A DNA stretch of 5,659 bases from IMG/VR virus record IMGVR_UViG_2585427766_000017; one strand, written 5' to 3'. This DNA is from a virus. Lineage: Duplodnaviria > Heunggongvirae > Uroviricota > Caudoviricetes. A program made the translations under genes and the position numbers. Shown in pieces: positions 2,785 to 4,296 of this stretch. How positions within the stretch are numbered: position 1 is the stretch's first letter; each line of letters starts with the position of its first letter. The notes beneath the pieces are model-generated. The model ran no database searches and was not told the origin of the DNA. It worked only from the letters and a program-made list of their open reading frames with translations.

Positions 2785-4296
2785 ATGGCAGTAAAGATTT
2801 CAGGTGTACTGAAAGACGGCACAGGAAAACCGGTACAGAACTGCACAATCCAGCTGAAAGCAAAACGTAACAGCACCACGGTAGTGGTGAACACGCTGGC
2901 CTCAGAAAATCCGGATGAAGCCGGGCGTTATAGCATGGACGTTGAGTACGGTCAGTACAGCGTTATTCTGTTGGTGGAAGGATTCCCGCCGTCACATGCC
3001 GGGACCATCACCGTGTATGAAGATTCTCAACCCGGTACGCTGAATGATTTTCTCGGTGCCATGACGGAGGATGATGCCCGTCCGGAGGCATTGCGACGTT
3101 TTGAACTGATGGTGGAAGAGGTGGCGCGTAACGCGTCCGCAGTGGCACAGAACACGGCAGCCGCGAAGAAGTCAGCCAGTGATGCCAGCACATCTGCCCG
3201 TGAGGCGGCAACCCATGCGACTGATGCTGCAGGCTCAGCACGTGCAGCCAGCACGTCAGCCGGACAGGCCGCGTCGTCGGCTCAGTCAGCGTCTTCCAGC
3301 GCAGGAACGGCATCAGCAAAAGCCTCTGAGGCATCAAAAAGTGCTACCGCTGCAGAGTCCTCAAAAAGCGCGGCGGCTACCAGTGCCGGTGCCGCGAAAA
3401 CGTCAGAAACGAATGCCGCAGCATCACAAAAATCGGCAGCCACTTCTGCATCCGCTGCTGCAGAAAAGGAGCTTGAGGCTGAAAATCATGCGGCGTCTGC
3501 TGAAGAAAGTAAAACCGTTGCAGAACTCGCAGCTGAGAGGGCTACTTCAGCAGCTCAAAATGCGGCCGTTGATGCCGCAGCTGCAACAGCAACACAATTG
3601 CGCGACGAAGTTCGTGAGGAGATAGACAGGGCCTCAGGGCTGGCTGAAAGGGCCGAAGCAGCAAACGAGGGCGCCTGGCAGGCCCTTGCTAAGGCCCAGG
3701 AAATAGCCAAAACACCAGGGCCACCCGGAGATAAGGGTGATAAAGGGGACAAGGGAGATAAGGGTGATAAAGGGGACAAGGGAGATAAGGGTGATAAAGG
3801 GGGTAAAGGAGATAAGGGCGAAAAAGGTGATAAGGGTGAGGGGGTTGCACCAGCCGGCGTATTGATGACCACCCCGATGGGCACTGATTTTAACGAGGTA
3901 GGTCTTGGAAAATACGCCTATCCACTATTAGGACAGGAAAACAGTAACGCCGCCGCAGTAAGCAATCACCCCATACCAGGTTCAACAGGTAACGCAGCCT
4001 GGGGAGTTGTGTGGGCTGCACCCCGAGGCATCTACCCTGCCCAGATTTTCATGAATTATGAAGGCCAGATGATGTCCAGGATAAAGGCGAACTACGGCTG
4101 GTCGGCCTGGTGGCAGTTCGCCGGTAAACCTCTTAGTGAATACCCGGGGACTTATCTTTTCAGCGTGACGACGGCGGCAGTAAGTTATCTGCAGGAAGTT
4201 TCCGGCAGCAGGCTGACACCACAGCGGGCGGGTACCTGGGTCGCACTTGGGGATGCTGCAGCAAATAGCTCGACATTATTTCAGAGGGTAAGGTAA
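2785..4296 (+). CDS. stf: Side tail fibre protein (lambda Stf-like N-terminus; Ala/Ser-rich shaft; collagen-like GDK repeats; distinct C-terminal domain)
   Basis: From the ATG at 2785 the N-terminus [37 protein letters not shown]...[15 protein letters not shown]...[24 protein letters not shown] matches the lambda Stf N-terminus as I remember it. The ORF track starts at GTG 2779, but ATG 2785 reproduces the lambda start MAVKISG. An Ala/Ser/Thr-rich low-complexity shaft is followed by G-P-P plus (G-D-K)n triplets and a ~150-aa C-terminal domain rich in aromatic residues (W/Y). Confidence 0.88.
3727..3840 (+). repeat. In-frame tandem repeat encoding the collagen-like Gly-Asp-Lys array of the tail fibre (27-bp unit ggagataagggtgataaaggggacaag, two perfect copies then degenerate copies)
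   Basis: Direct reading: 3727-3753 and 3754-3780 are identical 27-mers, and 3781-3840 continues with degenerate 9-nt GDK/GGK/GEK units. Translation is [43 protein letters not shown]. Confidence 0.9.

Follow-up and report, generated by a model that had tools for sequence, protein, structure and literature searches.

A side tail fibre gene of a lambdoid prophage that combines a lambda-type attachment end with a coil-collagen-tip module and a co-varying DUF4376 partner gene

The described systems closest to the gene considered here, a stf-like side tail fibre gene carried on a 5,659-nucleotide stretch of DNA from a Caudoviricetes virus record (IMG/VR record IMGVR_UViG_2585427766_000017; the whole stretch is referred to below as the window), are the Stf/Tfa system of lambda in its Ur-lambda form, the EPcl fibres of Escherichia coli prophages, and the fibres that are partnered by a protein of the DUF4376 or Mu U (TfaMu) type. 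In the Ur-lambda structure, residues 1-91 of Stf are collar domains contacting gpV and gpM, and the proximal coil comprises 292 residues (102-393) (PMC12617516). EPclA-D are fibres of E. coli prophages with a PfN-PCoil-Col organisation and differing C-termini, and EPclA forms dumbbell-shaped trimers in which a true collagen triple helix is combined with a coiled coil (Ghosh 2012, PMC3368898). Experiments have shown DUF4376 proteins to be required, or at least cognate, chaperones for the fibres of the Alteromonas phages V22 and A5 (PMC7289586, PMC10579305) and for the H-fibre of Campylobacter CJIE1, and Mu U (TfaMu) is reported to carry the domain (PMC7882524).

Here we show that the window fibre is a mosaic of two fibre lineages. 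It shares with lambda Stf its position after J and lom, an N-terminal collar, an Ala/Ser-rich coiled-coil shaft and an expected role in speeding adsorption, but it is without the Pf2 repeats, the hinge and the gp37-like distal coil and receptor-binding domain of lambda Stf, and has instead a shorter shaft, a collagen stalk and a different tip. With the EPcl fibres it shares the order PfN, PCoil, collagen and C-terminal domain, a PCoil with hardly any Leu, Val or Ile, and the presence of copies in several prophages of one genome, whereas its collagen array is short and almost purely GDK. With the fibres of Mu, CJIE1 and V22/A5 it shares a DUF4376 gene just downstream and a tip-matched module, although the fibre bodies are unrelated and the DUF4376 protein has no detectable sequence similarity to any solved chain. 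The architecture is therefore one already known from the EPcl fibres, and the novelty is limited to the tip family, unnamed and rare, and the chaperone module that is matched to it. Coordinates below are window positions, and all features lie on the forward strand except the dinI-like gene.

Two fibre lineages joined within the coiled coil

The fibre gene (2785..4296) was recognised as an open reading frame (ORF) with PF08400 and PHROG tail-fibre family matches, placed after J and lom. It runs from ATG 2785 to TAA 4294-4296 as 503 intact codons, the mechanical ORF beginning at GTG 2779. The attachment end is a PfN (phage_tail_N) domain that includes the collar (residues 1-134, 2785..3186; PF08400 at 241 bits, cutoff 26.6). 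BLASTP gives 87% identity to lambda orf-401 over residues 1-160 and, when the comparison is split, 93% over residues 1-113 and 80% over residues 114-224; residues 1-113 are 100% identical to those of phage 434, BP-4795, a prophage of enterotoxigenic E. coli (ETEC) H10407 and others, and the Ur-lambda tail fibre chain 9e7m_Ta matches residues 1-94 with an E-value of 1e-52. An earlier note on this DNA, made from the letters alone, had described the first ~110 residues as near-identical to lambda Stf, which is borne out for residues 1-113 but understates the extent of the lambda-like part, which reaches to about residue 222. By analogy with Ur-lambda Stf, the collar would attach the fibre to the tail directly above the tip complex.

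The shaft that follows is an Ala/Ser-rich coil (about residues 114-311) in which, over the 195 residues counted (114-308), Ala makes up 37% and Ser 16%, with Leu, Ile and Val accounting together for only 11 of the 195 (5.6%). Measured against the 292-residue proximal coil of lambda it is short, as the note had said. The parentage of the protein changes within this coil, and this is seen most clearly by comparison with the lambda-type Stf of ETEC H10407 (1033 residues) on the one hand and the fibre of L005, an IMG/VR contig, on the other. Residues 1-113 are 100% identical to H10407 and 52% to L005, residues 114-224 are 97% and 73% identical, and residues 225-308 are 37% and 92% identical. Beyond the coil, the collagen segment has no meaningful match in H10407 (6 residues aligned) and is 100% identical in L005, and the tip is 34% identical to H10407 over 58 residues and 89% identical to L005. 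At the DNA level the match to H10407 is confined to nucleotides 1-674 of the gene, where it stands at 98.4% identity, and then ends.

On these segment identities the coil divides into a part A (residues 114-224, 3124..3456) of the lambda/H10407 lineage, which is 40-73% identical to the relatives of the distal module, and a part B (residues 225-311, 3457..3717), which is 89% identical to a second IMG/VR locus, L006. Part B ends in a conserved coil-to-collagen transition, '...EIAKTPGP', that is common to the sequences P0023, P0027 and P0033 and occurs in P0030 as the one-residue variant DIAKTPGP. Similarity to part B at the protein level (89-92%) was found only in L005 and L006, and its DNA (3440-3730, residues ~219-315) has no blastn match, in near or distant mode, in 5,426 complete E. 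coli genomes, although both flanks do match. The mosaic proposed in the earlier note is thereby documented through both of its parental types, residues 1-224 belonging to the lambda/H10407 lineage and residues 225-503 to the lineage of L005, which has a different N-terminus. The note had placed the junction at about residue 110, which does not hold: the switch lies ~110 residues further in, near residue 222. A probable crossover zone spans residues ~203-222 (3391..3450), a stretch common to H10407, lambda and L005/L006 across which the parental identity changes. Since the switch falls in a stretch that is present in H10407, lambda and L005, the two-lineage fibre was likely assembled by homologous recombination within the low-complexity Ala/Ser coil.

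The coil leads into a collagen-like array of 14 uninterrupted Gly-X-Y triplets, the first of them GPP and most of them GDK (residues 312-353, 3718..3843), which was identified by direct reading and by Tandem Repeats Finder (period 9/27 over 3727-3839, score 171). The array is so short that its Pfam Collagen match, at 24.8 bits, does not reach the cutoff of 27.2. Together with the Ala/Ser repeats, this array evidently breaks assemblies and gene calls. The closest public contigs (L003) have lost one nucleotide of the array immediately 3' of an A5 run (window position 3827), which splits stf into ORFs of 224 and 143 residues, and in L002 a run of Ns (9789-9890) covers the coil/collagen region. 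No exact copy of the full-length fibre protein turned up in public assemblies, the only 100% match being a truncated gene call of 143 residues on two metagenome contigs; most database homologues are partial because the collagen repeats break assemblies.

The C-terminal tip, its fold and its distribution

The protein ends in a globular tip of ~150 residues (354-503, 3844..4293), a putative receptor-binding domain with a conserved core at residues ~395-451. A comparison with lambda orf-314 found no similarity (best E-value 3.0), in agreement with the earlier note, which could not match the C-terminal domain to the distal region of lambda Stf or to a gp37-like one. Residues 355-503 have no Pfam match even at E<=10 and none in PHROGs, and in a sequence search of the fibre against the Protein Data Bank (PDB) the matches are confined to the N-terminus and the collagen array. 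An AlphaFold2 model of the tip, built on a 21-sequence alignment, is mostly beta and confident (pLDDT 93, pTM 0.81), and resembles the distal domains of phage receptor-binding proteins (RBPs) and R-type pyocin fibres, namely phi11 Gp45 (5efv), R2 pyocin (6cu2/6cl6), the phi812 RBP (9euf) and Pa193 gp47 (9b45). These structural matches cover 72-104 aligned residues at 10-21% identity, and the hosts and fibre contexts of the proteins concerned differ from those of the tip. Foldseek against the PDB returned the same chains with E-values above 0.02, none being significant at E<=1e-3, and BFVD gave weak tail-fibre matches. The profile and structure searches that the note had proposed thus assign the tip to no family.

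Two further accounts of the tip can be weighed against these matches. One holds that the collagen stalk and head are not a phage part but either a module of the C1q/TNF/BclA kind or a collagen-like adhesin that the bacterium directs at eukaryotic hosts. It could draw on one database homologue named 'BclA protein, partial' and on the NCBIfam results, which consist only of sub-threshold matches to the collagen-like adhesins Lcl and Scl (<=30 bits against cutoffs of 325-500). However, no C1q, TNF or BclA-type head appears among the structural matches of the model, the 'BclA' label is therefore a collagen-driven name only, and we regard this disfavoured account as scarcely credible. The other would make the tip an enzyme (a depolymerase or esterase), or the carrier of an intramolecular chaperone of the self-cleaving kind represented by the S74 domain in EPclD. 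Homology to the EPclD tip (Stx2-86 gp21) or to its S74 chaperone was considered and rejected, with no Pfam match and an hhalign probability of 0.3% against the gp21 C-terminus; a domain of 150 residues is moreover too small for a beta-helix depolymerase, and a separate chaperone gene is present, so that an enzymatic or self-cleaving tip seems very improbable. The PfC (PF06820) tip of EPclA and EPclB is likewise absent from the window fibre (Pfam, tip at E<=10).

Among the EPcl fibres, the one with a trace of similarity in the tip is EPclC* (EC55989_1078 of E. coli 55989, L011:9661-11064, 467 residues), which has a short tip of ~85 residues with the same end motif, PGTW.A.G...LFQRI[RS]. The similarity detected by hhalign is limited to the last ~22 columns (probability 77%, E-value 2e-5), and BLASTP finds nothing in the tip. 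Clear full-length homology to a characterised fibre tip, which would have spoken against the reading in the note, was not found in these comparisons. Tentatively, the window tip may be an EPclC-like C-terminal element that has been enlarged by a conserved core of ~100 residues.

Conservation within the tip is uneven, with a conserved core at domain residues ~41-97 and more variable stretches at 1-20, 31-40 and 101-110. The ratio of nonsynonymous to synonymous substitution (dN/dS, Nei-Gojobori) is 0.10-0.17 against three relatives, and the tip is therefore maintained by purifying selection.

The tip is rare. A tblastn search of 50,697 phage genomes, Stx2-86 included, returned no match to it, and GTDB, sampled at one genome per species, contains no relative. 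It was found at 3 loci in IMG/VR and in 10 of the 5,426 complete E. coli genomes (H16-H25), where it occupies 39 places at 82-85% nucleotide identity, with a median of 4 per genome. At the protein level, a word-indexed search of 5.8 billion proteins gave 22 matches, mostly partial, all the named ones being from E. coli, and an exhaustive HMMER search of 1.84 billion representatives of 50%-identity clusters gave 29, which include Salmonella enterica (subspecies enterica, diarizonae and salamae) and Edwardsiella tarda. In E. coli tcmA_3 (NZ_CP059835.1, loci L001 and L012) the tip is present in two different lambdoid prophages, adjoining ydfJ and ompW/yciE, one of the copies being annotated as frameshifted; TUM1881 and E9 are further E. 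coli strains that have the module. The distribution in tcmA_3 and the other carrier genomes suggests that the tip spreads between co-resident prophages, as has been reported for EPclA in O157:H7.

Among these homologues the N-terminus that precedes the tip is lambda-Stf-like in some and unrelated in others (that of P0038 looks P2 gpH-like), and collagen may be present or absent; the tip thus behaves as a portable distal module. Combining these observations, the tip could be the founding member of an undescribed receptor-binding family of enterobacterial prophages, with ~29 cluster-representative matches on at least three kinds of fibre body, whose Trp/Tyr-rich core would bind a surface glycan common to E. 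coli, Salmonella and Edwardsiella, for example the lipopolysaccharide (LPS) core or enterobacterial common antigen, and not a porin; the several co-resident copies in few carrier genomes would then have arisen by gene conversion, with a lineage-specific receptor as the driving force. Taken as a whole this is a speculative proposal that we consider unlikely, though not without weight.

The DUF4376 gene and a module matched to the tip

The ATG of the next gene overlaps the stop codon of stf (TAATG). This gene (4296..4925) encodes a protein of 209 residues, a putative cognate tail-fibre chaperone, that is identified by PF14301 (58.5 bits over residues 81-190, cutoff 25) and by phrog_1141, a family labelled 'tail fiber protein'. 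It has no similarity to lambda Tfa (orf-194), from which the helper thus differs, and a search against PDB sequences found nothing at E<=10. A DUF4376 gene stands directly after the fibre gene in L001, L005, L006 and E. coli 55989, as it does in the window; in L007, ~700 nucleotides (6373-7074) separate the fibre gene from the homologous N-terminal module.

The first 84 residues of the DUF4376 protein (4296..4547) form an N-terminal module that travels with the fibre tip, in that its identity to relatives tracks that of the tip. The tip, the N-terminal module and the C-terminal part are 86%, 85% and 35% identical, respectively, to those of L001, 89%, 86% and 92% to those of L005, and 85%, 86% and 92% to those of L006. 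In L007 the tip is 50% and the N-terminal module 64% identical, the contig ending before the DUF4376 domain, and in 55989 the tip has practically no identity, the N-terminal module 55% and the C-terminal part 72%. The C-terminal part accordingly varies independently of tip identity. DNA similarity to the tcmA_3 locus L001 extends over window nucleotides 3867-4548, starting within the tip and breaking off at codon 84 of the helper gene. Given this co-variation and the end of the DNA similarity at codon 84, the exchangeable unit is the tip together with the N-terminal module of the chaperone. Such a unit agrees with the published view, paraphrased in PMC7882524, that Tfa proteins combine a portion specific to the fibre with a general assembly portion.

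The fibre would, on the analogy of the DUF4376 systems described above, depend on this protein as its chaperone. A different division of labour has to be considered. As with T2-type gp38, or with Mu Tfa, which remains on the fibre, the DUF4376 protein could stay at the fibre end as an adhesin or co-adhesin, the C-terminal domain of the fibre then being an adaptor only. The phrog_1141 label points in this direction, as do the annotation of the gene after the Stx2-86 fibre as 'tail fiber adhesin' and the DUF4376 partner in 55989 (L011, fibre-helper region 9661-11681), which is 65% identical to that of the window though the fibre tip is largely different. TfaMu itself reportedly remains attached to the fibre of Mu (PMC7882524), and the Alteromonas chaperones have been proposed to act as transient caps (PMC10579305). 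However, the conserved unit that travels across unrelated fibres is the tip and not the DUF4376 C-terminal domain, this C-terminal part is swapped independently of the tip, and it is the tip whose fold matches the distal domains of RBPs and fibres. We therefore judge a DUF4376 adhesin to be improbable, and prefer a fibre tip that makes the cell contact with the DUF4376 protein acting as its chaperone.

The end of the DUF4376 gene is overlapped by a DUF1353 gene (4882..5271; PF07087 at 116 bits; phrog_1158, 'tail assembly chaperone'), the start of which is uncertain, lying at TTG 4882 or at ~4894 as called in L002. A DUF1353 gene is found downstream of the module in L002, L003 and L006 and is absent in L001 and 55989, and it may belong to the module.

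Genomic setting and a model for the fibre

The window represents the end of a lambdoid tail module, with J, lom, stf and the helper gene in the order seen in lambda. It opens with the 3' part of gpJ (1..2053), which was recognised by tblastn with lambda J and is disrupted: residues 450-846 of lambda J align in frame 1 (nucleotides 1-1188) and residues 849-1131 in frame 2 (nucleotides 1202-2047). The lesions are a frameshift near 1189-1201 and a TGG to TGA change at 1211-1213 that replaces a Trp codon by an in-frame stop (SKE*KDA against SKEWKDA in lambda). Next comes lom (2121..2720; PF06316 at 406 bits), and strong terminator-like hairpins lie 3' of J (2072-2091) and 3' of lom (2747-2768), as in lambda. 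At the right end of the window, on the reverse strand, is an apparently complete dinI-like gene of 82 codons (5411..5659) with a promoter-like site (5652-5625). This gene was recognised by eye, supported only by L001, in which the corresponding position is annotated 'DinI-like family protein'. An Rfam scan of the window gave no match.

The broken J means either that the prophage is defective or that the assembly contains errors. In the former case the fibre might be a relic that is idle here, its intact frame reflecting only that decay is recent, and the frameshifted copies in relatives (the L003 deletion and the tcmA_3 copy annotated as such) would fit with this as well as the J lesions do. 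Against it stand the intact 503-codon frame and the low dN/dS of the tip, and, as the contigs that match most closely come from metagenome assemblies, the J lesions could themselves be errors of sequencing or assembly. It should also be noted that a defective prophage can still donate the cassette to co-resident prophages by recombination, the tip being present in 39 copies in 10 genomes. A mere relic is on balance an unlikely explanation, though one to be taken seriously.

We favour, and consider probable, a reading in which this lambdoid prophage gene specifies a homotrimeric side fibre composed of a lambda attachment end and an acquired coil-collagen-tip host-range cassette with its cognate DUF4376 chaperone. 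According to this model, three chains would associate into a homotrimer, docked through the collar. The distal half would constitute a separate host-range cassette, made up of the rest of the coil, the collagen triple helix, the ~150-residue beta-rich globular tip and the overlapping DUF4376 gene. The ~198-residue coiled coil and the 42-residue collagen helix would form a thin, rigid stalk, estimated at ~29 + 12 nm if each residue contributes the standard rise of 0.15 nm in the coil and 0.29 nm in the collagen. The DUF4376 protein would act as an intermolecular chaperone, its N-terminal ~84 residues being matched to the tip and its DUF4376 domain serving as a generic assembly module. Folded and trimerised with the help of this protein, the tip would make a reversible first contact with the cell through a receptor other than the OmpC that is used by lambda Stf, and this contact would speed adsorption before J engages its own receptor. 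Receptor recognition as in the pairing of lambda Stf with OmpC is unlikely because the distal parts and the helper differ from those of lambda. Binding of a lambdoid Stf to the LPS core has been described for Gifsy-1 (PMC12312913), and in engineered lambda Stf chimeras the distal part alone sets the targeting of the particles (PMC11338833). Three points weigh against the model. The aromatic-rich conserved core of the tip could be purely structural; the DUF1353 gene, as a second candidate helper with a 'tail assembly chaperone' label, blurs which gene is the chaperone; and with the neighbouring J disrupted the prophage may not make infectious particles.

The acquisition of a new tip by recombination is an ordinary route of phage host change, and current concepts of phage fibre evolution and function are not challenged by this locus. 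It is a natural counterpart of the engineered grafts onto the lambda Stf N-terminus (PMC11338833), with a defined junction and a matched helper. Side-fibre tips decide which strains are adsorbed by a lambdoid phage or by an engineered lambda-based delivery particle, and should the receptor of this tip be identified, the cassette would extend the available set of specificity modules by one and give the EPcl fibres a further class.

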